Numbered from the stretch's first letter, positions 1 through 47,127 are shown. The stretch: 64,000 nt of DNA from Scyliorhinus canicula (GCF_902713615.1 NC_052148.1:210460263-210524262); one strand, 5' to 3'. Notes: generated by a model not told the origin, from the letters alone. Program-made: numbers and translations.

Positions 1-188
1 CGTCATGACGCTTGTAATGTAGAGCATAGGAATGGATTGCGCATGCGCAGATCGCTTTTCCTTTACTGTGCGCTCTTTGCTCAACTGCGCATGTGCGGTT
101 TGTCGTGCATGCGCAAACAGACTTTCCTTCACTGTGCGCATTTTTCGGAACTGCGCATGCGCGGCTCCTTGCGCAAGATGGCTGTCAG

Positions 189-530
189 TCAAACTGCCGT
201 TTGCTTCTGTTGCAAGTCTATCTTTACCTCGTGGTGAGTAGAGGTGCCGGTTTTACGGATTTCTGTTGTGTGTACCTCGCAGTAGTTTTCAAACTTGTCC
301 AGGACTGTCTGGAAGTCTCTCTTGTCCTGCCCTTTGGAGTACTCGAAGGAGTTGAAGATTTCTGTTGCACTTTCACCCGCAATGGTGAGTAGAAGATCTA
401 TCTTCTCAGCATCGGCCACACCATCTAGCTCGGATGCCACCATGTAAAGCTCAAATCGCTGCTTGAATGCACGCCAGTTGGCACTGAGATTGCCGCGGTA
501 CCTGAACTGCTGAGGAACCAGAATCTCGAT
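189..530 (-). mobile_element. gag of an older Ty3/Gypsy LTR retrotransposon, interrupted by the provirus
   Basis: GNLSANWRAFKQRFELYM...KIDLLLTIAGESATEIFNSF is a typical Gypsy gag N-terminus. Removing 531-10395 restores ATG ATC GAG ATT CTG GTT CCT (MIEILVP) from the ATG at 10398. Confidence 0.85.
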
Positions 531-1497
531 TGTTGCTCGTTCTACTGTTAGTGTGATTAACACGCCTCCATTTAAAGGACATGTGCTTAACACTGGTTTG
601 GCTCTGTATCTGTATTTATACTCAGGAGTCGCCAGGTGCCATAAGAGACACCGTCACAAGTTATCAAGGTCAAGTTCAAAGCAATAAATCTAAACACCGA
701 TCAGTAAGTCCAAACAATTAGTGTTTATTATAACAAATATAATAAATACTCATGCACACGCTAAAAGACTAATACTTATTCCTACTATTCAACGACTAAA
801 TACTTATCTAGAAAGGAACAGGCAAGGTCAGGGGGGCAAGGCCTTCGTCCCGTTCTTGGTCTGCAACTTCTGGTTATTAAGTCGGCAAGTGTATAAGCAA
901 CGCCTGGGTCACGTAGCGATCGTTGTTTTGGCACTTACTGATAGATGGCTGATGCTCAACGGCCGCTGATGAAAGACAGGGTCTGGAAGCTGGGGTCAGA
1001 GTCTGGAGTCAGGATGCAACAGCCTAGGCCGGAGTCAGGAAGCAACAGACCGAATCATGTGTGGGACCTTTTTTTTATAGGTCCCAGGAGGTCCAGGTCC
1101 CCTTGGGGCGGTTCCCTCATCGATTGGGTCTTTCCCGATCGATACGTTTTGAACTCCCCTATCCTGGGGTCGTTTCTCGATGGCTGGGGCGGTTCCTCGG
1201 GGTCACTATTCTGGTTTCTCTGGCGCCATCCTGGCTGGGTAGCTATAGAAAAGTATCGATTGATACTTAAAATGTTTCTATTGTATCTGGGACTGGGCCG
1301 GTATCACCTCATTAGTATGCAGATCGCTTTCCTATTTGCACCTTTGGCTGAGTTTCTGCAACTGCCTTGAAACCGGTTTTGTACGTGCAAAAATGCTAAA
1401 TGCTTCTGCAAGCTGTGTGTCCTTACTATGGCTGTTTTTCCCTGTATTCTTTGTGGTTCTCCATTTTGTAGACTGGTGTCCATCTTAGAGGGCTAAA
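531..1497 (-). repeat. 3' LTR of the provirus
   Basis: Aligns end to end with 9425-10391, with about 29 differences by manual count (~3%). On the minus strand it ends CAACA and begins TTTAG rather than TGTAG (G>T change). It follows the PPT. Confidence 0.96.
724..729 (-). terminator. Polyadenylation signal of the 3' LTR
   Basis: Minus strand AATAAA (plus strand TTTATT), conserved in the 5' LTR at ~9618-9623. Confidence 0.65.
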
Positions 1498-1508
1498 TTC
1501 CCTCCTTG
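1498..1508 (-). promoter_or_regulatory. Polypurine tract
   Basis: Minus strand AAGGAGGGAA directly abuts the 3' LTR. Confidence 0.8.
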
Positions 1509-1885: not shown

Positions 1886-2233
1886 CTATGCATCAAGGGG
1901 TTGGGGGGATTGGTGAAACCCGAAAATAGGGGATTGAACTCCGTAAATGGTTGAGGGGCAGGAATGGGAGGCTCTCCTTTTCCATTTCCTCAACCTGAGG
2001 GTCTGTACTATGATGCAGAGAATTGCAATCACCAACAGTGATTCAATCACATACGACATCGAGTACCAGGTCATGAATTTCGTGCACCAGGTCTGAACCT
2101 CACTGATCAGTGCTGAGAATGGAGAAGTCGATGTGTGGGAAACATTAACGGCGGGGGTCGCGGGGGAAACATGATTTGCTTCAACATGCAAAAATACAAC
2201 AATATTTAAAATAAATAGGTAGGCTTCCATCAT
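1886..2233 (-). CDS. 115-aa predicted type-I membrane protein in the env position (function unknown)
   Basis: ACCATGATGG Kozak context; hydrophobic N-terminus (YLFILNIVVFLHVEA); S/T/P-rich ectodomain with an NVS sequon; hydrophobic segment VIESLLVIAILCIIVQTL; polybasic RLRKWKRR; no internal stops. Confidence 0.6.
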   Translation of the reverse strand: MMEAYLFILNIVVFLHVEANHVSPATPAVNVSHTSTSPFSALISEVQTWCTKFMTWYSMSYVIESLLVIAILCIIVQTLRLRKWKRRASHSCPSTIYGVQSPIFGFHQSPQPLDA

Positions 2234-3160
2234 GGTCTTCTTTGTTCTCTTCCTTCTCTTCCTTTGTATGGCCGATCCTTGCCGTGAACCCTCCGACTGT
2301 TCGAAAGCTATGGGATCAAGCACAGTATCTGTCAATACACAGTTTAATATCTGTACTGTTAGTGTATCTGTCCTCTCATTCGAATTGACCCTTAAATGAA
2401 TGGCCAAGTCACACCCTGTGACTCCCCTCATTTTTTTTTTCAAATGCAAATTTAGGAGCAGATATACACCTAACAACTTTTCTACTGCGAGCCGTCTCGC
2501 AGGCTTTGCGATTTACCATCCGAATGTTCCTGGATGTAAATAGCATGTGGGATGGCTGCCGAAGGGCTACCTAAAGAAAAATGAAACCAAATTTTGAACG
2601 AAAAGGTCGAATGAGTTGCGTATGGGCCGCTACGGGTAAGATTTGAACGGGATCCCCGGGTAAGACGTGCTGTGCCGTACCCGAGCTTGGCTGACCAAAG
2701 GGGTTCTCAGACAGGGCGGGTCCTCAGTGCCGTTTGTCCGCTACCTGAGCAACCTGAAATGAACGGGTATGAATGTATTCATCGTGGGATTGCAGCCTCT
2801 ATTCACAGAATAGAGGGGTACCTGAAAAAGAAGGGAGGAGCCAAGATGCTCCAACATCCGAAAACAGATTACAAGTCGTGAACTTTGTCGGTTCACCAGA
2901 GGATACTTAACTGAAGTTCTCAGAGGTATCTGCGGATAAACTAACGTGTGTGCGAGGCGGTCACAAGCTTTTCAGCTGAAAAGAAGATGGCCAACCTCCA
3001 ATCAAACCTTTAACAAACAACAAAGTGATCTGATCTCCAATCAAACCCTTAATATTATCAAAAAACAAACAAACACAAACAAACAAAACATACGTGCAGG
3101 TTCCATCAGAAAGGATATCGCTTCCCTCAAGCGGTTCCTCTTTTACATCATCTGGACACC

Positions 3161-6100
3161 TCACTTCTCCTCTTTCTCTGTGAACAGGGTCACAAAGGGG
3201 TTGCCGTATCGGGAGTCAGACATCACGTCTTCCTTTTCTCCCGGATCCCACACTCTTGTGTGGATCAGGCACGCGATCTGTGCATTATGTGACCGGGGGT
3301 CACTCTCATCCTTGCGGACAAGTCTCCATGAATTGTCCCTTTGCCAAATTGTGGTATCTAAGTTTGAAGGGGCATTGTCGGTGTCGTCGGGGTCGGGTGG
3401 TGGGTCTAGGTATTTAACGTAGGTGACCTCCATGGGGTCACTGGAGTCGGGGTCGAAGTCGTTGAAGTGGGGGCTGTAGGGTGGAGTTCTGTGGCTGTCC
3501 TCAGTTTCACAGTCACTGTCGCTGTCTCTGCTGTGGCAGCTTGTGGGCGTTTTGGGGCGTGGTCTGAAGTCAGTGGACGGCGTCATGGGCGAGTCCGATG
3601 AGGAACTGGTCTGTGAGGGGGATGGTGGGAATGTGTCTCTAGTGGGCGGGGCGAGATGTTCTGCTGCGTCTAGCAGGACATGGTGTGTGTGGTTAGACTG
3701 TGTTCCATATGCCTTCAGTTGGTTAATATGAAACCACGCAGTCTTACCATTGGGGTATTTTATTCTATAAATGGAGGGGCTAATTTTGTCCGAAATTGAA
3801 TACGGGCCGGAAAATTTAGGTGCCAAAAAGCTGCTGGGGTTATAAACAGATAACATTACCTGTTGTCCAACCTGAAATTCTGTGGGGTGTACGTTCTTAT
3901 TAAAGCAAGCTGTGCTTTGTTTTCGTCTTTTTCCCAATTTTACTGCGGCTGCTAACTGTGCAGACCTCACAGTCTCAACTAGGTCTTTGATTGCCTTCTC
4001 ATGTGTGAGGGCCGTCACTTCGGGGCTAGTCATGTCCAGTCCTAAAAGGAATTCTGTACCTTTCATAGGGCGTCCGGTCATGAGCGTGTGTGGGGTGAAT
4101 CCTGTGGATGATGAAACCGTGTTGCGGATGAACATGAATGCGAATGGGAGTACTGAATCCCATGTTGAATTGTTCTCCTGAACTATTTTTCTAAGGGTCG
4201 ATTTTAGGGTCCGATTCATGCGTTCGACTGGGGGTGATACGCAATGTAGAAATTTTGTTTAATGCCAAATATTGTCAGGACGTTCTGCATGACCCGTCCT
4301 GTGAAGTGAGATCCCTGATCTGCATCTATACTTCTCGGGAGACCCCATCTCGTGAAGATGTGGTGGGTCAGGATCTTTGCAGCTGTCTTAGCTGTATTGG
4401 TTCATGAGGGGAATGCCTCTACCCATTTGGTAAAGGTGTCTATAACGACCAGAACATATTTATAGCCATTCCTACAAGGGGGCAATGGTCCTATAAAATC
4501 GATCTGGAGGTTAGTCCAGGGGCCATTAACTGGTCGAGTATGTCTAAGTTGTGCCTTTTTCGAGTACCTCTCCGGGTTATTTTGTGCACAAATTAGGCAA
4601 TTCTCGATGTAATGGGTCACATCGTTTCTTAAATTTGGCCACCAACAGAGTTGCCTGAGGTGCCTTGTGGTCGGGTCGATCCCTTGGTGTCCATGACTGT
4701 CATGGAACAAGGCAATCATCTGATTCCTATTCTGTTCCGGAACCACATAAAGTTTATCCTTAATGATCACACCCTCATGTGTGGTCAAAGCGTGTCTGAA
4801 CGTATCGTATTGGTGCACAAAATTTCCTTTAAAAATCTCCCTGAGATCTCTATCCTGCTTCTGTGCCTCAACTAAGTCTTTAATTTCCGTCTGTGAGACC
4901 TGAACTGCACTCACAGGGGCGCTAGCTGGTGCGCCAGCTGGGGGTGTCCAAAAGTGTCCTCGCCTGGAACCTGCTTTTGCCAGTGCATCGGCTTTTACAT
5001 TTCCAGGGGGGGATGACCTATGGTGACTTCTAACTTTGATTATGCCATACGTCCTATCCTTTGCCTTCTCTAGGATATGGCGGAGTAATGGGGCTGATGG
5101 AAGGGGCTTCCCGTCCGCGGAGACAAAACCTCGTGTCCTCCACAGGGGTAGAAAATCTGTTAAACTGTTACAGACATACAAACTGTCCGAATATATGTCT
5201 GCCGGGCTGGGAAACGAATCTGGGTGGTCCACTATGTATGCGATGGCCGCGAGCTCTGCTGCCTGCGCGCCTAAGTGTCCTGGTAATTTTAAAGAGATTT
5301 CTTCTAATGCGCGACCCTGCGCATCCTCAACATAGATCCCGCATCCAGTGATGCGTTCTCCATCTAAAACTGTGGATGAACCGTCCACATATATTTTCAG
5401 TGGGGCACACGTGTCTGTGTGCTGGGGGCTCTGGCTTGAATTCCCTATCTTTCTGGGGGGTGTCTTTGCTATGAAGGTTCCTGTGTTGTGTAGGGGTGCT
5501 ACAATTTCACATTCATGGGGCTGTCCTGGATATTGGAGGTTGTCGGCTAAAAATGTGTGTGTCCTGGTCCGTTTAACTGTGATGCCCCGTCCTTGTAAAA
5601 GTAACGTCCATCTAGCTGCTCTAATCTGGCTAACTGAACCGTCCTTCAGTCGACCGGCTAGAAGTAACTGTGTGGGGGTGTGCTCGGTCAAAATGGTGAT
5701 GGGATTGAGTCCGGTAATGTACGCAAAGTACTGAACTGCCCAAAAAACTGCTAGGAGGTGCCTCTCGCAGGCTGAAAATCCTTGCTCTACGGGGTCTAAA
5801 AGTCTGGAGGCATAAGCCACTGGTCTTAGCTGCTCGTGCCGTTCCTGGAGTAGCACGGCCGAGAGGGTCAGATCTGTGCTCGCTACCTCTATTGCATAGG
5901 GGGAGAGTTGGTCTGGGACTTGTAGCGCGGGTGCTGCGCTAAGGGCTTTCTTTAAATCTTCCACAGCCTCTGTATGCTGCGGAAGCCATTCCCATGGGGC
6001 TCCTTTCTTAAGGAGGTCTGAGAGTGGGGCTGCCTTTGTCGCGAAACCATCGATATGGTTCCGACAGTAACCAACCAGTCCTAAAAACGACCGGAGGGCT

Positions 6101-7041
6101 GAAACATTCTGGGGAAGGGGCAATTTGACAATCGAATCAATCCTTTTGAATTCGATCTCGCGTTTGCCGTGCGTGATGACTGTACCCAAATACATCACTT
6201 TGTTCTCTAATATCTAGGCCTTTCTGGGGTTAACTTTACATCCGATCGAGGTTAAAAGTTCCAGGAGCTCGGCCAGAAGCGTAATGTGCTCTGCCTTTGT
6301 GTCTGTCTGCAGTAATAGGTCGTCCACATACTGTACCAGACATTCGGGGCGGGAAAATTTTACTAAACCATTTGCCAGCTGTCGGTGGAAAATGGAGGGT
6401 GAATTGTGGAATCCTTGTGGGAGGCATGTCCACGTATACTGCTGTCCTTTAAATGTGAAGGCAAATTTGTACTGGCACGCCTTTGCCAATGGGATTGACC
6501 AGAAGCCATTGCTAATGTCCAAAACCGTGAAGAATTTTGAGTGGAGTCCCTGTTTGAGCATGGTCTCGGGACTTGTTGCTACCGTGGGGGTTACTTTGTT
6601 GAGCTCCCGATAATCGATGGTCAGGCGCCATGATCCGTCGGGCTTTCTCACTGGCCAAATAGGTGCATTATTGGTCGAGGCTACTGTCCTAAGTACACCT
6701 TGCTCCAATAAGCTATCTATTACTTTTCCTATTTCTCCCTCTGCTTCTAGGGGAAATCGGTACTGTTTCTGTGGTCGGGGGTCAGGTCCGGTAACTTGAA
6801 CTTGTCCAGTCACTCTGCCGCAGTCATGCCGGTGACTGGCAAATGCTGTCCTGTGTTTATTCAAAACTGTCCTAACCTGTTTGCCCGTGCTAAGCGTGGT
6901 CGGGTCGAAACAATAGTCGCCTACTGCGCTAATCCTATTCGCATACTCTCCTACTGTGAGAGTAGCGGGTGCTCTGTCTGATTTTGCCATTCGCCAGACA
7001 CACTGGTTTACTGGATCGAACGACAGGCTATGAGCATTCAT
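3161..7041 (-). pseudogene. pol: pol: reverse transcriptase, degenerate RNase H tether, RNase H, integrase with long C-terminal tail
   Basis: RT motifs LDISNGFW, LPQGFHNSP, YVDD. In-frame TAG at 6214-6216. RNase H motifs YVDGS/AELAA/SDS/ADALA. IN motifs HHCC, QIDFIGPLP, ERMNRTLK, GPY. Frameshifts near 4402 and 4230. Confidence 0.95.
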
Positions 7042-7368
7042 GAAATCTATACCCAGTATGTGTTCTGCTGTACGGGGTAGATTAACTAATGCAACGGGGT
7101 GTCTGGTGGAGATGGTCCCTAGCTGAATTGCTACGGGGGCTGTAATGTGTCCCTGCTGTGAGTGTCCTGTAAAACCGCTGAGTGTAATGGTGGATGTGGT
7201 CGGCCACGTGTCTGCCTGTGCCGTGGTGGTGGAATTAATTGTGGTGCGGGACCGTCCTGTGTCCCAAAGTAACTCTATGGGCTTCCCTCGAACCTTTGCT
7301 GTGACTACCGGTCTCCCGGATTGGTCCCAGAGGGTGTCACAGACCCAAGTGGGGGAGCCCGAACACTG
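7042..7368 (-). pseudogene. pro: Aspartic protease domain (not shown in the ORF track because it has no start codon)
   Basis: Manual translation is open and in frame with gag and RT: ...PIELLWDTGRSRTTIN...EHILGIDFM. Confidence 0.9.
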
Positions 7369-9114
7369 TCAGTCCGTTCCGTCCACATTGGTCTGTCCTG
7401 ACTGTATTCCTATACTGTGAATAGGCTTCGCTCTATTTCTGTTCAGAGTGCCTGTCTGCTGGCCTCTCTGTGATCTTTGGGGTGCATTGCCTTCCTTAGC
7501 AAAATGTCCTAACTGACCACAGTTGTAGCATTCCTGCGACTTCTGTGGAGGGCTGTTCTTCCCTTCGTTTACCCATGCGGGGTTTTGGTGCGCTCTCACT
7601 GCCTGAATGTCCGCTGCAGCCTGAGCTTCATCTGGGGTCTTTATTTTAATTTTGCCCTGAACCGATTGTTCCCAAGCGCGGGACAATCTTTTCAGAACCC
7701 ATTTCTCGTTATGGGCCTCCTCTGAGGGGTCGTAACTATTGCAAGCACTCTGTCCTGCATCTGTGGCATGGGAGATTATGGTGCGTGTCCATTTAACCAT
7801 GTTGTCACGGTTCAAACGCGCTCGGTTTAATTCGCCAAAAACTGCAGTGAAATGGATCCACAGCCTTCCTGCAAATGTTGTGGGATGCTCTGTTCTCTTT
7901 TGTCTGCATTTATTTCGTCCTTCAACTGGATCTCCTCTGTTATACCCTATTGCACCTAAAATGGAGGTGTGCATTTCCTCTAGTGTGCCTCCTCCAACGA
8001 TCTGTGGGTCGGGGAGGGCTGCTACTACGGATGGGTCTAATCTCAGAACCGTGAGCTTAACCTGCTCTCTATCGTCCAGGCCGTACATGGTCGCCTGCTG
8101 TTTAACATTTGCGAAAAATTGGTGGGGGTCTCCGGTGGGGAGAAACGGAGTGATTTTCTCACACGCGTCCCTGAGTTACGTTACAGTTAAGGGGGTGGTG
8201 TAGGTGATATCGGGTGCGCCGTCTGTGGTTGCCTTTCTTTGGGTGGTGACTGGGTTCATAGGTGCGGATGCTATCTGATCTGTGGGGGGTTGGGGTGCTC
8301 TCCTTTTCTGCTGCGCTGCTGGTGCACATGTTCCTTGAACATAGCGCTGCGCTGTCTCACTCAGTTCCTGCCAGTCTGGGGCATTCTCCTCATCTAACTG
8401 CGTTCCAAAGGTGCTTTGGAACCCATTCTGCACTGAAAGCAACAATTGCAGCTCCGCAATCTGCTGCCTACATTTTGCATGGTCTACTGTGCTCTGTCAT
8501 TGCTCAGTGGTGGCAGCATGGAGTGCTCTTAAAGCTGCCTTTAGGTCAGAGCATTGCCTCTGCAATGCCTCTACCTGCTTTTCCGATTCCTCTCTTATCA
8601 GGACTTCACGTTGCACATCTTGGTAGGCTTTTTCGTATTGGGTCTGGGAACTGCTCCGATGGGCTAGACACGACTGATGTGCCCTCTTGGCATCATCCAC
8701 CTCTCTACCCTTCTCTGTCAGCTTCCCTCTTAGTTCTAAGTTTTCCTTCTTGATGTCCCTGACATCCACTTTACTCATTCTATTCCTCTCTTCTAACTCT
8801 GCTCGGAGCGTCCGAACGACCTCCTCAGTGCCTCGCAACTGTGCCAAACAGGACACGATTGCCATCGGCTTGCGTGCTTTACTCGGATTTTTCTTATGAA
8901 TTTGAGAGAGGTTCTCCCACCAAGTATGTCCTATACTCCCGGGACCTGTCTCCTCATTCATACAGAACTCATTCCAAAGGGGCCATCCCTTTCCTTTCAG
9001 ATACTTGCGGAGTTCCAGCTCCCACACGGGCCACTGACCTATTCGGCTACTGCTGGTCGCTGCGACCAAGAACTGCTCTGGGTTCATGAGGCGCTCCATT
9101 GCCTGCATGGCCAT
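7369..9114 (-). pseudogene. gag: gag (coiled-coil N-terminal part, capsid-like region, single CCHC-type knuckle)
   Basis: ORFs 8497-9114, 8176-8445 and 7369-8088 are all in one frame, broken only by TGA (8497-8499) and TAA (8176-8178). Knuckle CYNCGQLGHFAKEG has the last Cys changed to Gly. Confidence 0.88.
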
Positions 9115-9399: not shown

Positions 9400-9419
9400 G
9401 TCCCGTCTGAGAGTCGCCA
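9400..9419 (-). promoter_or_regulatory. Primer-binding site, tRNA-Arg(UCU)-like
   Basis: Minus strand TGGCGACTCTCAGACGGGAC starts 5 nt after the 5' LTR. The first 10 nt are complementary to the ...AGAGUCGCCA 3' end of vertebrate tRNA-Arg(UCU), recalled from memory. Confidence 0.7.
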
Positions 9420-9827
9420 CTAAATGTTGCTCGTTCTACTGTTAGTGTGATTAACACGCCTCCATTTAAAGGACATGTGCTTAACACTGGTTTGGCTCTG
9501 TATCTGTATCTATGCTCAGGAGTCGCCAGGTGCCGTATGAGACACTGTCACAAGTTATCAAGGTCAAGTTCAAAGCAATAAATCTAAACATTGATCAGTA
9601 AGTCCAAACAATTAGTGTTTATTATAACAAATATAATAAATACTCATGCACACGCTAAAAGACTAATACTTATTCCTACTATTAAACGACTAAATACTTA
9701 TCTAGAAAGGAACAGGCAAGGTCAGGGGGGCAAGGCCTTCGTCCCGTTCTTGGTCTGCAACTTCTGGTTATTAAAGTCGGCAAGAGTATAAGCAATGCCT
9801 GGGTCACGTAGCGATCGTTGTTTTGGC

Positions 9828-9833
9828 ACTTAC
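9828..9833 (-). promoter_or_regulatory. Candidate major splice donor inside the LTR R region
   Basis: Minus strand TCA|GTAAGT about 135 nt downstream of the TATA box, present in both LTRs. Confidence 0.5.
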
Positions 9834-9966
9834 TGATAGATGGCTGATGCTCAACGGCCGCTGATGAAAGACAGGATCTGGAGGCTGGGGTCGGAGTCTG
9901 GAGTCAGGATGCAACAGCCTAGGCTGGAGTCAGGAAGCAACAGACCAAATCATGTGTGGGACCTTC

Positions 9967-9975
9967 TTTTTATAG
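9967..9975 (-). promoter_or_regulatory. LTR TATA box (U3)
   Basis: Minus strand CTATAAAAA, conserved in the other LTR (~1072-1080), upstream of the LTR AATAAA. Confidence 0.65.
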
Positions 9976-10788
9976 GTCCCAGGAGGTCCAGGCCCCTTGG
10001 GGCGGTTCCCTCATCGATTGGGTCTTTCCCGATCGATACGTTTTGAGCTCCCTTATCCTGGGGTCGTTTCTCGATGGCTGGGGCGGTTCCTAGGGGTCAT
10101 TGTTCTGGTTTCTCTGGCGCCATCCTAGCTGATTAGCTATAGAAAAGTATCGATTGATACTTAAAATGTTTCTATTGCATCTGGGACTGGGCCGGTATCA
10201 CCTCATTAGTATGCAGATCGCTTTCCTATTTGCACCTTTGGCTGTGTTTCTGCAACTGCCTTGAAACCGGTTTTGTACGTGCAAAAATGCTAAATGCTTC
10301 TGCAAGCTGTGTGTCCTTACTATGGCTGTTTTTCCCTGTATTCTTTGTGGTTCTCCATTTTGTAGACTGGTGTCCATCTTAGAGGGCTACACGATCATCT
10401 TGCGTGGGTGCTGTTGCTGGTAGTCACGGATCTTGCTGAGTTGAACTATATAGATTCAACAGGCACTCACTGGTAGCATGTTGTGTTATGCTTCTTCATG
10501 TAGCATAAGCAGCTTCCTTGATGTATGCTTTGACAAAGGAAGGTCCAGACTTTGTAATGAGTTCAATATGTTTATTGAACTATTAACACAGTTCTTAAAT
10601 GAATTCGACTCTCCTGCTAATCTAACTGTAGTAGCTCTGTCTTACTAAACCAGTCTGCTCTAAGCCACGTGTTGGGTGTGATGCTTCTGATCAACCCTGA
10701 TGTACTCTCTGGATGTCTGTCTGTGGACAGAGGCACAGCATGTGTGCCCTGTCCTTTTATATGGGTTGTGTAATGCCCCCTTGTGGTA

Positions 10789-11144
10789 ATCATAGAATCA
10801 TAGAATTTACAGTGCAGAATGAGGCCATTTGGCCCATCGAGTCTGCACCGGCTCTTGGAAACAGCACCTTACCCAAGCCCATACCTCCAACCTATCCCCC
10901 TAAACCAGTAACCCCACCCAACACTAAGGGAAACTTTGGACACTAAGGGCAATTTAGCATTGCCAATCCACCTAACCTGCACATCTTTGGACTGTGGGAG
11001 GAAACCGGAGCACCCGGAGGAAACCCACGCACACACGGGGAGGATGTGCAGACTCCGCACAGACAATGACCTAAGCCGGGAATCGAACCTGGGACCCTGG
11101 AGCTGTGAAGCAACTGTGCTAACCACAATGCTACCGTGCTGCCC
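10789..11144 (-). mobile_element. HE1-like tRNA-derived V-SINE
   Basis: tRNA-like head GGGCAGCACGGTAGC, B box GGTTCGATTCCC, core GGGTTTCCTCCGGGTGCTCCGGTTTCCTCCCAC, (TTCTATGA)n tail. Confidence 0.88.
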
Positions 11145-11209
11145 AAATAAATAACTTCACCTTTCTCCCCATTGAAATTCATCTACCATCTCCCTGCCCA
11201 CTCCATAGT

Positions 11210-11528
11210 ATATCATAGGATATCATAGAACATACAATGCAGAAGGAGGTCATTCGGCCCATCGAGTCTGCACCGACCCACTTAAGCCCTCACTTCCACC
11301 CTATCCCCGTAACCCAATTTTGGACACTAAGGGCAATTTATCATGGCCAATCCACCTAACCTGCTCGTCCTTGGACTGTGGGAGAAAAACGGAGCACCCG
11401 GAGGAAACCCACGCAGACACGGGGAGAACATGCAGACTCAACACAGACAGTGACCCAGCAGGGAATCGAACCTAGGACCCTGGCGCTGTGAAGCCACAGT
11501 GCTATACACTTGTGCTACCATGCTGCCC
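11210..11528 (-). mobile_element. HE1-like SINE
   Basis: Same head, core and tail motifs. Confidence 0.85.
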
Positions 11529-11825
11529 AAACATTATTGTGTCATGTTCATCATTAATTCCAGATCTTGCATTGAGCTTTAAATTCCATCACCTGTCATG
11601 GTGGGAATCGAACCCGATTCCCCAAATCATTATCCTGGGTCTCTAAATAACTAGGCCAGCAGGAAATGCCACAATGCCACAACCTGCTGTCGGCTAAAAT
11701 GCCACCTCTGGATGTCCTGATTATCCATTGGTTGTGTCCTGTTGTAATGACCCAACTAGTGGTTACTTAGTTGCAGTGTATTTACATTAACCCCTTGTGT
11801 ATTTACAGTGATGCATATCACCGCA

Positions 11826-11971
11826 GGAAGGGCCTCGGGTGACATCCTGAGGCCAACCCGACAACGTAGAGCATCCGCAAAACAGCGCCGCCCCTGATTT
11901 TGGCGTAAAAAATGATTCTCAGACCAATCAGTGAACGCGATTTCGCCATCGCCGCTCGGAGAGCCCAGCCC
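11826..11971. mobile_element. One end of a GC-rich MITE, cut off by the Gypsy LTR
   Basis: Terminal GGAGAGCCCAGCCC resembles the TIR family of the MITEs below; it joins L1 RT sequence on the right and the LTR end on the left. Confidence 0.55.
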
Positions 11972-14900
11972 AAAGTATTCACGTGAATGCTGGCAGTAGG
12001 GTCTTTGTACAGCAAATGGATCAATGAGACAAATTTTTGGCTGAATCCAAATATTTCAAGAATCTCAAACAAGTTGTCCCATTCTACCCTGTCAAATGCT
12101 TTCTCTGCTTCTGGAGATAATATCACCTCTGGCTTGGGTGCAGGAGAGGGAAAAAGTATAACATTCAAAAGGCAACGTATATTAGCTGATAACTGATGAC
12201 CCTTTACAAAGCATGTTTGGTTCTCTGAAATTATGCTTCGAAGGCAAGATTCCAACCAGAGCGCCAAAACATTAGTGAGCAGCTTTACATCGACGAGCGA
12301 GATGGGTTAGTATGAGCTGCATGCGGTCGGGTCCTTGACCTTCTTGAGGAGCAAGGAAATAGACGCTTGAGAAAGGGTTGGAGGCAATGAATCGTGGGAT
12401 AAGGAGTCGCTGAACATATCTAACAGCAAAGGCGTACATTGTTCCAAATATTTCTCATAAAACTCGATTGGAAAGCCATCTAGGCCAGAGGCCTTACGAC
12501 CAATGTATTTAAAATCTCATTGTGGTGAAACGTGGAGGTCAACTCACAACTCTTGACTGTTTCAACAGGTGGAATGGGCAGGCTGTCCAGAAAATCAGCC
12601 ACGATCGACTTGTCGATGGGAGGCTCAGATTTATACAGGTCACCGTAGTGGGATATAAAAGCCGCATTGACCTGGAGTTGGGCAGAAACTAAGTTGCCCC
12701 CCGGGTTGAAAACTGGCGGATCTCACCGGAGGTCAATTGCCATTTACGTTGGTGTGCTCGAAGACGACTGGCCTTCTCCCCATATTCGTAGAAAGTACCC
12801 CTGGGGCGCTGTTGCAGACATACAGCCTTATTGGTGGTCAGTAGCTCAAACTGGTCTACACCTTATATCTACTTGCATATAATTTCGATGTGGGATCGAT
12901 TGAGTACTGGTGACCTACGTCTAAAATGGAGTTCACTAGCCTCTGTTGTACTAATTTAGTCATCTTTAGCACGTGTCCTATAAGAAATAATTCTCCTCCT
13001 GAGGACGGCCTTAAGAAACTCCTAAAAACTGGAAGGGGAGACGGAGTCGGATCTATTTAATTTAGTGTAGTCGTCAGTAGAGGTGGACAGGCACTCGCAA
13101 AATTTTGTAGCGGCCAACATAGTAGTATCCAACCTCCAGAGTGGACGTTGGGTGGGGCTGGACTCCAGCAATAAATCAACAAAGTGTGAGGCATGGTCAG
13201 AGATTACAATTCCTGAGTACTCAGCTGCCTCTATCGATAAGAGGAAAGCCCGATCTAGAATGAAAAAAATCAATGTGAGAGTTTGCATGGTAAACGTGCG
13301 AGAAAAAGGAGAAATCTCTCTCATTCAGATGTTAAACGCGACCAGAGTCTACCCTTCCCAGCTGTGCCATGAAGGAAAACAAAGCCCTGGTCACCTCCAA
13401 TGGAACAAAGATTTTGGGTTATGATTGATTCAATGTTAGGTCCAGAACACAGTTCGGGTTGCCCCCGAAGATAAGATGGTATGTGTCAAGGTCGGGAAGG
13501 GAAGACAACAAAGAGTTGATGAAATTCATATCATCCCAATTAGGGGCATAAACGTTAAGCAGAACTATTGGGTGTTCAATAGGGAGTTGCATATGAGTAC
13601 GTATCGACCATTTGGCTCAGCCACAATCTGGGATAAGGATAATTTAACTCTTTTGTTGATTAAAATCGCTGAGCCCCTGGCCCTGCTACTAAAACTAGAA
13701 TGAAAAGCTTGCCCAACCCATCCTTTGTCCAGCGTGGTCTGATCTTGAATGCATTTCTTGTGAAAACAAATATCAGAATTTAGGCTCTTAAGATGCACAA
13801 ATGCTCTCAATCATTTTACAGGGCCATTCAAAGCCCTAATGTTCCAGGTGATCGGTCAGATTGGAGGTCTCCCGGCATCCTGAAAACTGGATCAGCCATT
13901 GCCAAGGAAGGATGTTAAACAAGGGGCACTGCGAAAGCAAAGCAAGATTAACCAAGATGGTCACCAAGTTAAGTCACGAGACTCAACAAAGCGAAACAAG
14001 CAGACACCATCAGTAACTAACACTAAAACACACTCCCCCCGCCCCCCCACCCAACCCAAATACGCCATTGAAGTCGAGCAGATCCACACCCAAAAGCAAA
14101 TGGAACGGTGGCAAACAAAAACTTAACCTCAAACATACAAACAGCAGAACACAACTCAACAAAAACTCTTGACCATTTTTAAAACTATTATGAGCTGCAG
14201 AAGACTCTTTAACATCACTCCCGTTAACTAATATATGTTAGCAGGGAGACTCCCAACTGGGGAGAAAAAAATTATTTAACTTAGAGCGCCACAACGGCGA
14301 CTGGAAGCTGCACCAAATGGTAATAACAAAACGAGAGAAAATAGGTTATTGTAGGGAGCGGACAGTAGAAATTCTTCATATATAACTACGGTCATCAAGA
14401 ATACACCCAAACAACAGACATGAAAAGTGCCCATGCAGTGAGCCATGGATCAGATTAAGCGGAGCACAAATTGTGCTTCTGGACAAAGGAGTCTGCATCT
14501 CCCAACGAGTCAAAAAAATAGTCTTTTTCACAGAATGTTATGTGAAGACCACATGGATAATGAAGTTGACTCCATCGGGTATTCCATTAGACTAAATAGG
14601 GAAGATTTCTTGGTTACGTCTACACTCATGTCCTGGTATAATCTGATAGAGTGGCCTTCCCATGTAAAATCCTGGTGCTCCCTTGCCCATCGAACCATCA
14701 ACTCCTTCTCCTCAAAGCTGTGAAACCTTGTGATTACTGCGCGAGGAGGATCTCCAGTGTGAGGCTTGGGCCAAAACTAACGGTGGGCCCAGTCTAATTC
14801 TGGGGGTCATGGAAGTATGTTCTCACCCACCATTTTGTGAAACATATCTGAGAAATGCTGAATAGGGATGAGGCCTTCTATCCCCTCCAATCAACCACAA

Positions 14901-15587: not shown

Positions 15588-15962
15588 GGGGCAGCAGGGT
15601 AGCAAGGGGCAGCAGGGTAGCATGGTGGTTAGCATAAATGCTTCACAGCTCCAGGGTCCCAGGTTCGATTCCCGGCTGGGTCACTGTCTGTGTGGAGTCT
15701 GCACGTCCTCCCCCTGTGTGCGTGGGTTTCCTCCGGGTGCTCCGGTTTCCTCCCACAGTCCAAAGATGTGCGGGTTAGGTGGATTGGCCATGCTAAATTG
15801 CCCGTAGTGTCCTTATAAAAAGTAAGGTTAAGGGGGGGGGGGGTTGTTGCATTACGGGTATAGGGTGAATTCGTGGGTTTGAGTAGGGTGATCATGGCTC
15901 GGCACAACATTGAGGGCCGAAGGGCCTGTTCTGTGCTGTACTGTTCTATGTTCTATGTTCTA
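15588..15962 (+). mobile_element. Young HE1-like SINE subfamily with (GTTCTAT)n tail and duplicated head
   Basis: Near identical to the minus-strand copies at 52294, 58983 and 60050. Confidence 0.9.
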
Positions 15963-26410: not shown

Positions 26411-26771
26411 ATAGATTATCATAGATTATCATAGAATCTACAGTGCAGAAGGAGGCCATTCGGCCCATCGAGTCTGCACCGGCTCTTGGAAAGAGCACCC
26501 TACCCAAGGTCAACACCTCCACCCTAACCCCATAGCCCAGTAACCCCACCCAACACTAAGGGCAATTTTGGACACTAAGGGCAATTTAGCATGGCCAATC
26601 CACCTAACCTGCACGTCTTTGGACTGTGGGAGGAAACCGGAGCACCCGGAGGAAACCCGCACACACACGGGGAGGATGTGCAGACTCCGCACAGACAGTG
26701 ACCCAAGCCGGAATCGAACCTGGGACCCTGGAGCTGTGAAGCAATTGTGCTATCCACAATGCTACCGTGCC
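26411..26771 (-). mobile_element. HE1-like SINE
   Basis: Core, B box and tail motifs; preceded by a poly-C run at 26358-26388. Confidence 0.88.
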
Positions 26772-28552
26772 CGTGCTATAGTCGTTTGCCAGTTGGAGAT
26801 AAAATATGACAAAATTTAGATACGTAAATTGATGTTTTACTCTCTTTGGTCAAATAATCTTAACATGTGTTGCATAGTAAAACTAAAAAAAAGCATCAAT
26901 AATTTATCCTGAAATAATCTGACAAATTTTAAATTAATACTGAGGTATAAGTCAACCTTTGTTATGTTGCTTGTTTAGTCAAAGTCTTTACATGAATACA
27001 AGAAGTAATTTTTGAACCCTGGTTTCAAAAGAGATAATCCACTTCAGAACAATCAGTATGCACTCATCTCTGGTGCCATTTTGGTACGTTTTCTTCCACA
27101 GACAAGAAAGCACCATGCAAAGAGAAAATTTTTGTTTTTGAATCTTGCAAGAACTTGATGCAGGTTTCCCCTTCCAGCCGAGTACGTATTACTGACAGAC
27201 TGGTGGCCTCTGAGAGTCTCAGAGGTACGACCACATGTCCACTGATTGGTTGACATCTAACACAATTTTTGGGCTGGATCTTTCATTATGTGGGGACTGA
27301 CGCATCCATTCAAAACTGGAAGACTGATTTCTGTTCAACACCAGCAAAAATATATTTTCTGCCAGGACAAACCATTTATTTAAGCAAATTATTCCACCAT
27401 TACAGAATATATGCAGATCTTATTTCATGGCCACCAAGAAATGCAATATGTTTAGCTGATAGTTATAAGATAATAAGAAAAGTTGCTGAATAAATATGAT
27501 TTGTCATTATACAAAAGGACAAACCTTTATGTACAAAACTTCTTTCGTTTTATAAGCTTTTTGAAACCCAATCATTTTACCTACAGTTAGTCTCTTAATT
27601 CATTCCCAGCAAACCATTTATTATTTTTATTAATATCAGATGAAAATTTGATATATTATGATCACCAGGCTCAATGCATTCATTTCATCTTTCCCTATAT
27701 TTGTATGATTGATTACTGAACAAATTGAGAATCCTGGGAATTTTTATTTTGCTCAAATGCTCCCACCTGTTTTAGTATTTAACAGTCCCCTGTGCCTCTC
27801 ACTTCCCTACATATTGAAGTAATAAAGCCTATTTCATCATTAAACTGAGTGTCAGAAACAGTCAGCCACTTTTGACCAAATGGACGAACCATCCCGTACC
27901 TGACCTGAGAGATGATGTAGAATGGTGAGAGTTGACTGCCACTCATGGAATGGCTGCTAATAATATTTTTGGCTTTTCTCCCCTGTAGTGAGTTTTGTGG
28001 CTGTTTTATGCAGATTCCAGGAGTTATATCTTCTGTGCTAATATTTGCTTCACCTCTAACACAGTTATACTTTTATTAAGGATTAGTTTAAATAAGCAAC
28101 ATCATTTGCTAAAATGATGCCTCGATCAGTTGGTCTGTTTGAAGTGAACAAGATTTTTTTTCTTCTAGTTCTTAACACCTGCTGGCTTATATTGTGTGCT
28201 TACAAAATGTCCAGATTCATTTAAACATAATGCACTATCAAGCACTTTAAAAATTACACATGATACGAACAAGCAAGACTGAGCTGTCCCTTGCTAAGGA
28301 GACTATAAACAGCTTGGAGCCATTGCCAAATCCAAAAGCTTCTTTTCATGCCTGCTTGATGGATTGGCAATTGTAGGAGAAAGTGCAAGCTTAATAGTGA
28401 ATGGGTATAGCTAAAGCAAAAGGTGTACTATGGGAAGTCGGACCTGTGCTTTAGTTTACCTTTCTGGATGAATACACAGGCATATTTTCATCCTTACCTA
28501 AATGTTTAGGGCTATTAGCTCATAAGTACATATTGTATCATCCTTTTTGCAG

Positions 28553-32009: not shown

Positions 32010-34140
32010 CAGTGAATCTGTATTCCTCAAACACGCAGCAGAGAAGAAAGCAGCAGAGACCCTTTTGAGGGTAGTAGGAGAAAGAGGCCACTACCAGTAA
32101 CCACAATGTAGGACGAAGGGCACAAGAAGTAATACTTGTAATAAAGAAATGGCAATAATTATGGGTGATTTTAATCTACATATAAACTGGAAAAAATGGA
32201 ATTGGCAGCAGAGCCTAGATGAGGTGTTCATAAAATGCTTTTGAGAGAATTGTTTTTGAGCAGCACATTCTTGAACCAACCAGAAAGCAAGTTACAATGT
32301 TACAGGAATAATTAATGTCCTCCGTGATGGCACCACTCGGTAGCAGCAACCACAGTATTAATGAATTTTACATGCAGTTTGAAAGGGAGAAGAGTGGGTC
32401 TGAGATTAGTACTTAAATAAGGGCAACCATGTGGGCATGAAAGTTAAGCGAGTTGAAGTGAACTGGGACCCTGGGCCGGGGGATAGATCAATAGAGAAAC
32501 CATGGCAAACATTTCAGGGGATATTTCGGAATACTCCGAATGATTCTATTCCTACTATAAAGAGAAAGGGGAGGACCTACCATCCGTGGTTAACTAATGA
32601 AGTTAAGGAAAGCATCAAACTTAATGAAAAAAACATACAAATGCGGCATGGTGAGTGACCAGTCGGATGGTTGGTCAGAAAATAAAGAATGGCAGAGAAT
32701 GACTAAAGGTTAATCGGGGAAAGAAATGAGAGAATGAGAGGAAGATAGCTAGAAATGTAGAAACAGACAATAAGAGTTTTTGCAGGTATTTAAAAAGGAA
32801 AATAGGAAGTCAAGTGAGTCTTGTTCCTCTAGAGAGTTAGAATGGGAAGTTAATAGTAAATAATAAAGAAATGGTGTTGAATTGAACAAGTATTTACTTC
32901 TGTCTTTAATATGGAGGATACAAAAAACATTCCAGTAAATTTAAAACTCAGGAGGTGGAACGGAGAGAGGAACTTTGTGAAATTTCAATCATTAGTGGAG
33001 CAGTACTGAGTAAACTGATGGAGCTGCAGGCTGATAAGTCTCTGGGTCCTGAAGGACTTCAACGTAGTGTCTGAAACAAGGTGGTTAAAATTTGCTAGAT
33101 TCTGGAAAAGTTCGATCAGACTAGAAAGTAGTAAATATAGGGCGGGATTTTCCCACCACACTGCCGCATGTTTTTCGGTGGCAGATGCAGCCCGCCAGTG
33201 GGATCTACCATTGCCAACAGGGTTTACCATTGACAGCACCCCTCATCGCCGTGTTGGACCGGGCATTCCCGCCAGCGTGAACAGCCGGTAGGTCCTTCCC
33301 ATAATCTCTTTTTTCAAGAGTGGCACGGTAGCACAGTGGTTAGCATTGTCGCTTCATAGCACCAGGGTCCCAGGTTCGATTCCCGTCTTAGGTCACTGTC
33401 TGTGTTGTGTCTGCACGTTCTCCCTGTTTCTGTGTGGGTTTCCTCCGAGTGCTCCCGTTTCCTCCCACAAGTCCCAAAATACATACTTGTTAGGTAAATT
33501 GGACATTCCAAATTCTCCCTCTGTGTACCCGAACAGGCACCGGAATGTGACAACCAGGGGCTTTTCACAGTAGCTTCATTGCAGTGTTAATGTAAGCTTA
33601 CTTGTGACAATAAAGATTATTAGAAAGAAGGGAGGGAAGCAGAAAATCGGGTGCTCCGGTTTCCTCCCACAGTGCAAAGATGTGCAGGTCAGGTGGATTG
33701 GCCATAATCAATGTGCAGGGGTTACAGGGATAGGGAGGGGAAGTGGGCCTAGATGGAGTGCTCTTTCAGAGAGTTGGTGCAGACTCAATGGGCCGAATGG
33801 CCGCCTTCTAGCTGTAGCGATTCTATGGATAGTCAGTGAGCGTGACATGGGAAGGTGTGAGAATCGATCATTTAAGGAGGTTATAGCTGGGCGCTTAGAA
33901 AAACTCAAGTTATTCAGAAAGAGTCAGCATGATTTTGTGCAAGGGAAATCATGTGTAACCAATTTATTAGAGCTCTTTGAAGGTGCAACATGTGTCGTGG
34001 ATAAAGGGGACCCCGTGGTTGAGTTGTACTTGGATTTCCAGAAGGCATTTGATATAGTGCCACACAAAGGAAAATAAAAACTCACGGTGTAGGGATAACA
34101 TTTCAGCTTGGATAGAAGATTGGCTTGCTGGCAGAAAACA
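32010..34140 (+). mobile_element. Old CR1-clade LINE ORF2 relic interrupted by a MITE and SINEs
   Basis: MGDFN-like motif, HPWLTNEVKESIK, SQHDFVQGKSCVTNLLE, YLDFQKAFD. Confidence 0.8.
33319..33622 (+). mobile_element. tRNA-derived V-SINE with a different 3' tail (TGTGACAATAAAG)
   Basis: Head and core as in HE1; the tail resembles that of the element at 54586-54766. Confidence 0.75.
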
Positions 34141-34250
34141 GGGGCTGGATTCTCCGTTTCAGGGACTATGTCCACTATGCCATCGGGAAAACTGTGGCCT
34201 TTATGCCAGAAAAACTGGTGTCAAAAGGCCAACATATTCACAGCCCTGCA

Positions 34251-35021
34251 GGGGGCGAGCAGGGAACCGTCGTGGGGCTAGCAGGGAGCCATCATGGGGC
34301 TAGCAGGGAGCCGTCGTGGGGCTAGCAGGGAGCCGTCGTGGGGTTAGCAGGGAGCCGTCGTGGGGCTAGCAGGGAGCCGTCGTGGGGCTAGCAGGGAGCC
34401 GTCGTGGGGCTAGCAGGGAGCCGCCGTGGGGCTAGCAGGGAGCCGCCGTGGGGCTAGCAGGAAGCCGTCATGGGGCTAGCAGAGAGCCGTCGTGGGGCTA
34501 GCAGGGAGCCGCCGTGGGGCTAGCAGGGAGCTGCCGTGGGGCTAGCAGGGAGCCTCCATGGGGCTAGCAGGGAGCCGCCGTGGTGCTAGCAGGGAGCCGC
34601 CGTGGGTCGAGCAGGGAGCCGTCGTGGGGCTAGCAGGGAGCCATCGTGGGGCTAGCAGGGAGCCATCGTGGGGCTAGCAGGGAGCCATCGTGGGGCTAGC
34701 AGGAAGCCGTCATGGGGCTAGCAGGGAGGCGCCATGGTGCTAGCAGGGAGCCGCCATGGGGCTGGCAGGGAGCCATCGTGGGGCTAGCAGGGGGCCGCCG
34801 TGCGGCTAGCACGGAGCCATCGTGGGGCTAGCAGGGAGCCATCATGGGGCTAGCAGGGAGCCATCGTGGGGCTAGCAGGGAGCCGTCATGGCGCTAGCAG
34901 GGAGCTGCCGTGGGGCTAGCAGGGAGCCGTCGTGGGGCTAGCAGGGAGCCGTCGTGGGGCTAGCAGGGAGCCATCGTGGGGCTAGCAGGGAGCCGTCATG
35001 GGGCTAGCAGGGAGCTGTCAT
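34251..35021. repeat. 22-bp G-rich minisatellite (GCTAGCAGGGAGCCGTCGTGGG), about 35 copies, inside a MITE starting at 34141
   Basis: Period 22 visible (unit starts at 34321 and 34343); MITE TIR GGGGCTGGATTCTCC at 34141. Confidence 0.95.
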
Positions 35022-36360
35022 GAAGCTCACAGCTCCAGCTGCAGATTCGGCCCCCCGCACGTCCGGGTCAGAGGCCCCGCATGCGCACGGTAGCAGCCTC
35101 GTGGGAATGTGCCGTGCTCCATGGCGGACTCAGACTGCGGAGCTGCACTGTGGAAATAGTGCCCCCTACCGGCCGGGCGCCTGTTGAAAGCGTTCCCCCA
35201 GCGGTTCTCTGCGCTCGATGGGCTGAGTCCCTCCGGCGTCATTTGCGTATTGTCCTACCCGGCGGGACCTCGGCGTTCTAGGTGGGGTGCTCTTTCAGAG
35301 GGCCAGTGCTGACACAATGGTCTGAATGGCCGCCTCCTGCACTGTCGTGATTCTATGGGGAAAAGCGTGGGGAATATGGGAAATGGGTGGGTGTGTTGGC
35401 TCGAGCAGCTTACCTTGGTGTTCAGTGGCGTCCTGGTGGGGGGCAGTGGGAGCTGACTCCAGGGGGGTGCCTCCACGGTGGCCAAGCCCGCGATCTGGGG
35501 CAACCGATCGGCGGGCGGGCTCATTCTGGGGGCGCCTATGTTCCTCCGCGCCGAGCCCCTTAGTGCTCGGCCATATTGCCTGGGGGCCGGCACGGAGACG
35601 GCCGTGGTGCATATGCGTGAACCCACGCCAACCGTAGCGGGAGCATGCGCTTACCCAGGCCGGCTGTGGTGGGTCGGCTTTCGGCGCCAGAGCAGCACTC
35701 CGGCGCCGTTCTAACCCCCGAGGAAGGGGTGAATGCCTGGGCCCAGAGGCCCGTTGATGCCGGCGTCAACACGTGTCTCTCAGCCAATAATACATTTAAT
35801 GAGGAATTTGACCAGGCACTATTTTCATCCCTCCACTGAGTCTGCCCAGTGCCATGAAAATCCAGCTCTGTATGTCTAATTGCTGCCTTCCCAGAACTTT
35901 CACCCAATGTGCAACTGGGCTTGTGCCTGTCACTGATTTCAGGTTTGTACTAAAGTAAAGTGGGCAAGGTTATTCACAGCCTCTCACATTATAATGCCTA
36001 TGCTTTGGCAAAGAGTTATCCAGACTCAAAACATTAGTTCTGCTCCCTCTTCACGGATGCTGCCAGGCCTGCTGAAATTGCCCACTATTTTCTGTTTTTG
36101 TAAAGGCTATGCTCGTGGGCAATCCAGCATGCAAACATCCAATGAAATAAGGTGCTATGGCCTGGTCTATATGGATCCCTACTGATGGATGGTTTTGCAG
36201 GGATCCCAGATTCAGGCTTAAGCAGAAGAGTAATGTATTTTTATTGATGCAGTCAGAGCCTTTTGGTCTCCAATATATTTTTTAAAAACTTAATGTATCC
36301 AATTCTTTTTCCAATTATGGGGCAATTTAGCATGGCCAATTCACCTACCTTGCACATCTG

Positions 36361-46843: not shown

Positions 46844-47127
46844 ACTAGAATGATAACTGCCTTGCATACCACCATGTTTGAAGGACAGTGATTGAATCTT
46901 GAACTTTTAAAATCCAAAAGATCATTGATTCACCACAGATGATGCTCAAAGAGGTTTCATTGAGTTGTGATATAAAGGTTAAAGTACGCAGCCTGCTCAC
47001 TACTTATCTGTTTGTTGAGCAGGATATTGTGCTGTGTGGAAAATAACTGGGAAGCTGACTATTAATAAGCTACGTGATGGATGCCCGCTACCTGATGGGA
47101 AACATGTCTATAGTTAGGACATACATC

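Follow-up and report, generated by a model that had tools for sequence, protein, structure and literature searches.

A high-copy, env-less endogenous retrovirus of the catshark Scyliorhinus canicula with a Gypsy-like tether and a predicted active RNase H

Introduction

The reverse transcriptase (RT) of retroviruses carries a connection, or tether, and an RNase H (Malik and Eickbush 2001, as cited in PMC7947760 and PMC4408406), and tether formation has been dated to an ancestor shared by Odin, Loki and canonical retroviruses (PMC9040795). Such a pair of RNase H-like domains is textbook for all retroviruses, lokiretroviruses and Odin, and tethers still recognisable as Gypsy RNase H (RH) have already been published: the tether of Loki was reported to be 32% identical to Ty3 RH (PMC7947760), and lamprey endogenous retroviruses (ERVs) are listed with both RNase_HI_RT_Ty3 and RNase_H matches (PMC10699275 supplement). 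The elephant shark has SnRV-related ERVs (PMC4422223), and clade Huo is described as spanning all vertebrate groups (PMC6001957). Here we analyse a long terminal repeat (LTR) element of 9.9 kb that lies complete on the minus strand of a 64,000-nucleotide stretch of the catshark Scyliorhinus canicula genome (GCF_902713615.1 NC_052148.1:210460263-210524262), hereafter the window, and that houses two RNase H-like domains in pol.

A first-pass annotation, made from the sequence alone, had read these domains as a dead Gypsy-type RH followed by an active retroviral one, and as an unusually little-eroded snapshot of tether formation. Our analysis indicates that the element very probably has the ordinary retroviral RT layout, with a polymerase, a predicted non-catalytic tether derived from a Gypsy RNase H and a predicted active RNase HI, in a high-copy, env-less and early-branching ERV. 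Its modest value lies in the family, which is young and abundant, has many open pol frames and belongs to an early-branching retroviral group.

Two RNase H-like domains in pol

Both RNase H-like domains are encoded inside a minus-strand open frame of 603 codons (4402-6213), and the Pfam domain order is PR-RT-RT_RNaseH-RNase_H-IN (protease, RT, the two RNase H-like domains, integrase). The first domain matched RT_RNaseH_2 (79.8 bits) and RT_RNaseH (66.8 bits) and the second RNase_H (57.9 bits, E 1.7e-15), all past the Pfam cut-offs. Pfam, alignment and fold concur that the first domain is a degenerate RNase H of Gypsy type, i.e. a retroviral tether, and the second has every acid of an RNase H in place, so that the annotation was right about the presence and the basic nature of both.

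The residues of the second domain are D (5385-5383), E (5256-5254), D (5187-5185), H (5025-5023) and D (4989-4987), and its four acids are kept in nearly all copies of the family, with scattered single changes. In a sequence search of the Protein Data Bank (PDB) the best match of this domain was foamy-virus RNase H (E 2.5e-9). A two-domain AlphaFold2 (AF2) model spans foamy PR-RT 451-749, and its second domain matches human RNase H1 with a Z score of 19.5. The second domain reads as a full cellular-type RNase HI and is predicted to be active.

Catalytic residues of the tether

The residue register of the tether was set by alignment to two Gypsy proteins with a single RH (P0004 and P0005). At site 1 the Gypsy TDAS corresponds to VAST, one position away from the EVAS of the first-pass annotation, and the first Asp is replaced by Ala (5883-5881). 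At site 2, EKE corresponds to ERH and Glu is replaced by His (5760-5758), as annotated. The change from TDH to TEH at site 3, which had been counted as a loss, keeps an acid as Glu (5685-5683), and at site 4 the Asp, which had been missed, is still Asp (ADNL, 5544-5542). Two of the four acids have therefore been lost (sites 1 and 2), not all four. The PHEC said to end the domain is present at 5520-5509, just outside the boundary then drawn at 5533; an H-x-C motif closes most of the retroviral tethers aligned.

Residues were tallied copy by copy rather than from a consensus. Ala at site 1 and His at site 2 occur in all 29 other copies ranked by the tether-RNase H region and in 20 of 20 copies ranked by a relative, P0001, that is 79% identical. 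Twenty full-length loci, six of them also in the 29-copy set, have Ala at site 1 and His (19) or Asn (1) at site 2. When 20 loci were ranked by ORF3, a short open reading frame (ORF) in the position of env, the region was present in 16; site 1 was Ala in 13 and Val in one of the 14 covered, and site 2 was His in 16 of 16 covered. A Gypsy acid (Asp at site 1, Glu at site 2) was seen in none of the copies examined, and the loss of both is fixed across these copies. The acids of sites 3 and 4 (Glu and Asp) are also nearly fixed across family copies, and TEH recurs in the relative 79% identical to the window element. Among the other relatives site 3 varies freely (T, S, P, H, K, C), and its Glu may be secondary; the tether tree is too poorly resolved at this point to tell retention of the two acids from regain. 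Two gammaretroviral-type tethers keep the Asp of site 1 (VDE in murine leukaemia virus, MLV), which the window element has lost.

Likeness of the tether to retroviral connections and to Gypsy RNase H

In the PDB sequence search the tether matched the RT of MLV/XMRV with E values of 1.5e-10 to 2e-9, against 0.005 for Ty3 RT. Modelled by itself with AF2 (pLDDT 85), the tether has the strand and helix order of an RNase H-like fold. In a re-ranking of the Foldseek top 1000, the model matched MLV RT best (Z 16.4, root-mean-square deviation 1.8, 122 residues aligned), followed by the RTs of cauliflower mosaic virus (Z 15.2) and foamy virus (15.1), whereas Ty3 RNase H gave Z 12.0 (deviation 1.8, 95 residues). 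Both sequence and predicted fold thus ally the tether with the MLV connection more than with Ty3 RH.

How Gypsy-like the tether is was gauged with PF17917. The window family scores 65-67 bits; 14 near relatives score 53-90, none scanned falling below 53 (P0002, P0011-P0020, P0022, P0023, P0029 and P0030 were scored), and five Loki-type tethers 63-79. The SnRV-like P0027 reaches 46, ten epsilon/gamma-type tethers 28-49, and two true Gypsy RHs 123-127. Here the Loki-type label denotes the motif CPFGY, and P0027 is called SnRV-like by two motifs only. Identity to the Gypsy protein P0004 is 33% for the window tether, 24-33% for relatives, 29-31% for Loki-type and 19-27% for class I tethers; identity of the window tether to P0005 is 27%.

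These values bear on the reading that the tether is a recent or unusually arrested intermediate, less eroded than others and perhaps retaining some metal or nucleic-acid binding through the Glu of site 3 and the Asp of site 4. It would fit with a Gypsy-model score above those of class I and SnRV-type tethers, with an identity to both Gypsy RHs that is top or near the top among 28 tethers, and with the near fixation of the two acids and the shared TEH described above. However, tethers of relatives and of the Loki type match or exceed this score and reach 28-33% identity to P0004; the two most critical acids are absent from all copies examined; fold and sequence point to the MLV connection rather than to Ty3 RH; the domain is under strong purifying selection; and site 3 varies in relatives, so that its Glu may be secondary. 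We consider an arrested intermediate improbable. Little eroded is a fair description beside gamma-, epsilon- and SnRV-type tethers, but not beside the element's own relatives or Loki-type tethers, and a snapshot of tether formation is not supported: a ratio of nonsynonymous to synonymous change (dN/dS) of about 0.05 marks a stable, conserved domain, and that event is placed earlier than the divergence of Odin, Loki and canonical retroviruses (PMC9040795). The tether is no nearer to its transposon ancestor than are the tethers of related frog, coelacanth and fish elements.

Placement of the reverse transcriptase

A search for homologues of the tether-RH region, limited to proteins of 331-1056 aa, yielded 10 matches. 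The RT search returned 309 proteins. Among those listed (at least 120), the best matches, at 52-58% identity, were 'NYNRIN-like' Pols of frog, coelacanth and Xenopus, together with some contigs; elements of turtles and birds came next. The closest database relatives of the window RT all carry both RNase H-like domains. P0011-P0030 are annotated 'NYNRIN-like'. A named SnRV reference was not found in the search of viral contigs.

The RT motifs of the window element, LPQGF and QYVDD, are like those of SnRV and of class I retroviruses. In the supplement 2 alignment of PMC9040795 they resemble the SnRV row, and the Loki and Odin rows have [CLM]PFGY where the window element has PQGF. A careful RT tree (LG+G4, 44 rows, obtained from 68 by dropping redundant rows and the long-branch P0025, P0028, P0092 and P0130) places the window element inside a retroviral clade of 31 rows, with support of 100/97 against the Loki-motif and Gypsy rows, in an unresolved grade below P0027 and class I. 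A quick mixture-model tree of all 68 rows agrees with the retroviral placement (SH-aLRT 97). In the approximately unbiased (AU) test, sisterhood with P0027 alone was rejected (p 0.02). By its RT sequence the window element is placed on the canonical retroviral branch, in an early-branching group.

The element resembles two other lineages in architecture. An env-less lokiretrovirus or Odin-like element was the first guess from the layout, and it would extend that group to cartilaginous fishes, which are not among the hosts listed in PMC7947760. Dual RH without env is found in Odin, and the H2C2 and SH3-like integrase is like that of Loki-motif proteins; the second domain is closest to foamy RH, and Loki and foamy viruses together form RH group I (PMC7947760); the top matches are named NYNRIN-like, and the Loki integrase is reported to be close to CGIN1/NYNRIN (PMC7947760). 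The RT motifs nevertheless differ from those of the published Loki and Odin rows, and the AU test rejected grouping with eight Loki-motif RTs (p 0.009), which are just 37-39% identical. On the motifs, compared by eye in the case of Odin, and on trees with Loki-motif rows this identity was rejected, and we hold it to be very improbable.

The other candidate is a Ty3/Gypsy retrotransposon with an independently gained second RNase H, as in plant Tat or the oomycete elements Chronos and Archon. The lack of env, the strong Gypsy-type Pfam matches, the presence of SH3_Tf2-1 and Integrase_p58_C, and an Asp of site 4 kept as in the Tat gRNH (PMC4408406) are all compatible with such an origin. Against it, the RT groups with retroviruses, and the AU test, with 5-6 Gypsy rows, rejected the Gypsy grouping (p 0.002); the added RH carries a His, as in the fungi/metazoa type, where Tat has an archaeal Arg, and the tether closes in the retroviral H-x-C motif. 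An independent origin is scarcely credible on this evidence.

Copies, selection and RNA

A search of the animal's own genome (4.2 Gb) gave 38,425 first-look candidates, a figure that is not a copy count. All 123 candidates scored were 95-100% identical, many within an open pol of 1411 aa; a second subfamily has a pol of 1408 aa, and open pols overall span 1408-1411 aa. In the 28 full-length loci fetched, the LTR pairs are mostly 98.7-100% alike. The target-site duplication (TSD) is 4 bp in the window copy and in six of eight scorable copies.

Between subfamilies (the window against 8/8 loci), the tether has dS 0.55, dN 0.025 and a ratio of 0.045, and the ratios for RNase H, RT and integrase are 0.033, 0.068 and 0.026. 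All-pair ratios are 0.04-0.12 (19-21 sequences), and the overall spans are 0.045-0.06 for the tether and 0.03-0.04 for RNase H, all of these being biased low by samples partly picked by protein similarity. Constraint on the tether matches that on the RT; since the tether is under strong purifying selection, it is a stable domain and has not been caught mid-decay.

No indexed run that contains the stretch is catalogued as RNA. In raw reads, the family fills all 30 bins in four of four RNA runs and so is covered over the whole element; the reads are mostly sense in three single-end runs if the usual reverse-stranded type is assumed. In three oligo-dT runs the depth is about 5-fold higher just past pol (L091:7485-8940; window 2391-2984), as in run X21, where it is 27-50 across pol and 109-245 after. 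The step may come from a subgenomic RNA, from copies with internal deletions or from 3' bias. No splice joint from the leader to ORF3 was found in the four runs with either reference. The tether/RNase H was not at the expected distance in four of the 20 loci picked by ORF3 (L062, L065, L067 and L070), which suggests internally deleted (non-autonomous) or rearranged copies.

Anatomy of the window copy

Of the canonical features of an ERV, LTRs, a TSD, a polypurine tract (PPT) and gag-pro-pol with integrase last are present (Table 1). The TGG-starting sequence is a candidate primer-binding site by its position. The two LTRs are 97.1% alike over 966 nt by self-comparison, with 26 mismatches and 2 gaps. 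At the rates of 2.2e-9 and 2.2e-10 per site per year quoted in PMC4422223, their divergence of 2.7% would correspond to roughly 6 to 60 million years. The window's own copy is dead because it is broken by two stops in gag, a stop in RT (6216-6214), a stop in integrase (4404-4402) and a frameshift near 4230.

Table 1. Features of the element in the window, in element order; positions count from the first nucleotide of the window.
Feature	Position	Strand	Basis
Target-site duplication ATCG, 5' side	10392..10395	-	sequence
5' LTR (TG...CA)	9425..10391	-	self-comparison, end inspection
Primer-binding-site-like sequence, TGG start, 5 nt past LTR	9402..9419	-	sequence; inferred from position
gag, two stops in window copy; weak N-terminal coiled-coil matches	7372..9114	-	Pfam, ORFs
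CCHC zinc knuckle in gag	7533-7492	-	Pfam
TGA in frame at the gag-pol junction, likely site of read-through	7369..7371	-	ORF map
Aspartyl protease domain	7036..7305	-	Pfam gag-asp_proteas/RVP
Reverse transcriptase fingers/palm/thumb (LPQGF, YVDD)	5990..6720	-	Pfam RVT_1
Connection/tether, degenerate RNase H fold, PHEC end	5509..5928	-	Pfam, PDB search, alignment, AF2
RNase HI domain, D-E-D-H-D, predicted active	4966..5403	-	Pfam, PDB search, AF2
Integrase (H2C2 finger, core, SH3-like C-terminus) and low-complexity tail	3161..4743	-	Pfam, ORFs
ORF3, 115 aa, env position	1886..2233	-	ORF map, copy comparison
Polypurine tract	1498..1507	-	sequence
3' LTR	531..1497	-	self-comparison, end inspection
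Target-site duplication ATCG, 3' side	527..530	-	sequence

In many other copies the gag frame is open over about 550-630 aa. The TGA between gag and pol is found in other copies as well, and the next base is C in 15 of 16 listed copies. The two genes share one frame, and the TGA is followed mostly by CGG (loci L031-L050) and by CAG in the window. A TGA in a CGG-type context is a leaky-stop signal; read-through of the MLV type uses TAG.

The insertion point lies within an older gag-like frame (window 30-530, minus strand; frame 189-653 minus, of the 'NLSANWRAFKQRFELYM...' type), which is probably another LTR element interrupted by the provirus.

ORF3 in the position of env

In all 28 full-length loci, none of the sense ORFs past pol and ahead of the 3' LTR exceeds 182 aa, and no env was seen there. 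In one copy pol and ORF3 are separated by an additional sequence of about 1.4 kb (L094:7401-8987), again without an env-sized ORF. ORF3 is full-length (about 113-118 aa) in 24 of the 28 loci. It consists of an N-terminal hydrophobic stretch (a predicted signal peptide), an NxS sequon, a predicted transmembrane helix at about aa 58-76 (a hydrophobic 19-mer), six basic residues in the next 14, and a short tail, and it is predicted from this layout to be a type I membrane protein.

For ORF3, dN/dS is 0.21 at dS 0.65 (7/8 loci), 0.21-0.22 overall and 0.14 in the C-terminal half, in copies that were not picked by ORF3. A HMMER search of 1.84 billion representatives gave five matches, four of them from Scyliorhinus: predicted proteins of S. 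canicula and S. torazame, one fused to a HEPACAM2-like gene model. The fifth (P0135) was rejected as false and repeat-driven. ORF3 belongs to no Pfam family, and the Atlas leads (TMIE, flu M2) were set aside, all being under 0.9, with low recognition and at chance level. ORF3 is under purifying selection across subfamilies and occurs in two catshark species.

The FAST (fusion-associated small transmembrane) proteins of reoviruses are short transmembrane proteins with a basic tail and without an N-terminal signal peptide. By hydropathy and charge only, ORF3 is FAST-like, as a short single-pass membrane protein with a polybasic tail. It differs in its predicted N-terminal signal peptide, and no sequence link to FAST proteins was found in the Pfam, HMMER and Atlas searches. 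ORF3 may be a selected remnant of env, an accessory protein or a minimal fusogen such as has been suggested for env-less fly elements (PMC11952523). A bolder reading is that the lineage replaced env with ORF3, a single-pass minimal fusogen or cell-contact factor of about 115 residues that would enable cell-to-cell passage and the high copy number, in a lineage that would also be alone in keeping two tether acids; we think this rather unlikely. Germline infection has been described for env-less LTR retrotransposons of Drosophila (PMC11952523); these too lack env, and no sequence link between them and ORF3 was found in the searches made with ORF3. If ORF3 did substitute for env, it would show that vertebrate retroviruses have a second way to spread between cells, parallel to the infectious env-less fly retrotransposons; as a selected remnant or an accessory protein, it would still inform the loss of env during ERV amplification.

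Other repeats in the window

Many copies of a short interspersed repeat, tRNA-like at one end, lie in both orientations, at 10790-11530, 15600-15840, 26420-26780 and 47120-47460, with further copies at 50015-50840, 52280-52640 and 58990-60390. Fragments at 11818-13424 (minus strand) resemble the endonuclease/RT of a long interspersed nuclear element, and a GC-rich 22-bp tandem array of at least 34 units occupies 34120-35200.

Discussion

An ordinary retroviral RT in an env-less ERV would work as follows. An RNase H without its first Asp and its Glu is incapable of two-metal catalysis. By that chemistry the tether, lacking both residues, would be unable to hold the two catalytic metals and would act as a structural linker, keeping the RNA/DNA hybrid in position for the RNase H that follows. 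This role is modelled on work on HIV and MLV, and orientation of the hybrid by the tether has been proposed for HIV-1 (PMC4408406, PMC10508981). The downstream RNase H would remove the template and make the PPT primer. Pol would likely be produced by read-through of the in-frame TGA, and intracellular retrotransposition is the likely mode of spread, because there is no env. The Gypsy-like look of the tether follows from the slow divergence of tethers in the early-branching group and in Loki; the window element is not a recent intermediate.

Several points weigh against this account. No acid at site 3 and no Asp at site 4 was seen in any of 27 other dual-RH proteins aligned, and a pure linker leaves the two acids present here unexplained. 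The tether tree joins the window element, its relatives, Loki and Gypsy in one basal polytomy, far nearer to Gypsy than the class I tethers are; this tree and the separate RH tree are poorly resolved at the base, and the tether is undatable from them. Copies in the 29-copy residue set and in the all-pair dN/dS were picked by similarity in the tether-RNase H region itself, which favours conservation, and the ORF3-ranked loci and the eight-locus dN/dS lessen this bias without abolishing it. Lastly, the RT tree was built without foamy, ERV-L, class II, Odin and CmiERV rows, and the position of the element among early-branching retroviruses is not fixed by it.

The early-branching ERV group may also have supplied the RNase H-integrase part to mammalian NYNRIN/CGIN1, genes that have been described as derived from Ty3/Gypsy (PMC9447858) and as related to Loki (PMC7947760). 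In the literature covered, on lokiretroviruses, SnRV-like, shark and ERV4 elements, catshark ERVs and env-less ERVs with a small transmembrane protein, neither the family nor ORF3 is described; Repbase and Dfam lay outside this scope, so that their absence there is unproven. The family is apparently an undescribed member of the early-branching ERV group, and we class it as an element of ERV type without env and do not assign it to a Retroviridae genus.

Among other named elements, ERV4 likewise belongs to the grade of ERVs outside classes I and II, but according to Table 1 of PMC4299795 it carries an env, its TSD is 5 bp long and its gag lacks a zinc finger, where the window element has a 4-bp TSD, a CCHC knuckle and no env. 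ERV-Spuma.0-Sca (PMC10699275), likewise an LTR element reported from a catshark, measures about 9 kb; compared by eye, it differs in the first 400 nt of the LTR and in ORF layout, the domains listed for it do not include RT_RNaseH, and it is likely a different family.

Lokiretroviruses (PMC7947760) and Odin (PMC9040795) likewise have dual RNase H, a tether recognisable as Ty3 RH and a foamy-type second RH, and Odin is described as env-less too (PMC9040795). Unlike Loki, the window element has an RT outside the Loki-motif clade, with motifs different from the Loki and Odin rows, and no F-like env by Pfam and ORF scan. Ty3/Gypsy elements (Metaviridae) have a single active RH of Gypsy type, which the window element does not, and its RT is not in the Gypsy grade.

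The nearest RTs, 52-58% identical, are found among the frog, coelacanth, Xenopus, turtle and bird Pols P0011-P0030, set here beside early-branching class III or SnRV-related ERVs such as clade Huo (PMC6001957) and CmiERV lineage I (PMC4422223). With the early-branching 'NYNRIN-like' group the window element shares RT motifs, the type of tether (ExxLL, TxHxP, PHxC), the H2C2 integrase and the gag CCHC; unlike those relatives, its family is env-less and has a very high copy number, and it is not the sister of P0027, which has SnRV motifs. With retroviral RTs in general (MLV, 4MH8/8WUS; foamy PR-RT, 7O0G/7KSE) it shares the domain order and the folds, a degenerate first domain, a second domain with DEDD and His, and an H-x-C motif that closes the connection. 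In sequence, its tether is more Gypsy-like than MLV and epsilon tethers, and it lacks the Asp of site 1 found in the MLV type, yet has acids at sites 3 and 4. Gypsy-like tethers persist within the canonical retroviral branch, where they have eroded at very different rates in different lineages.

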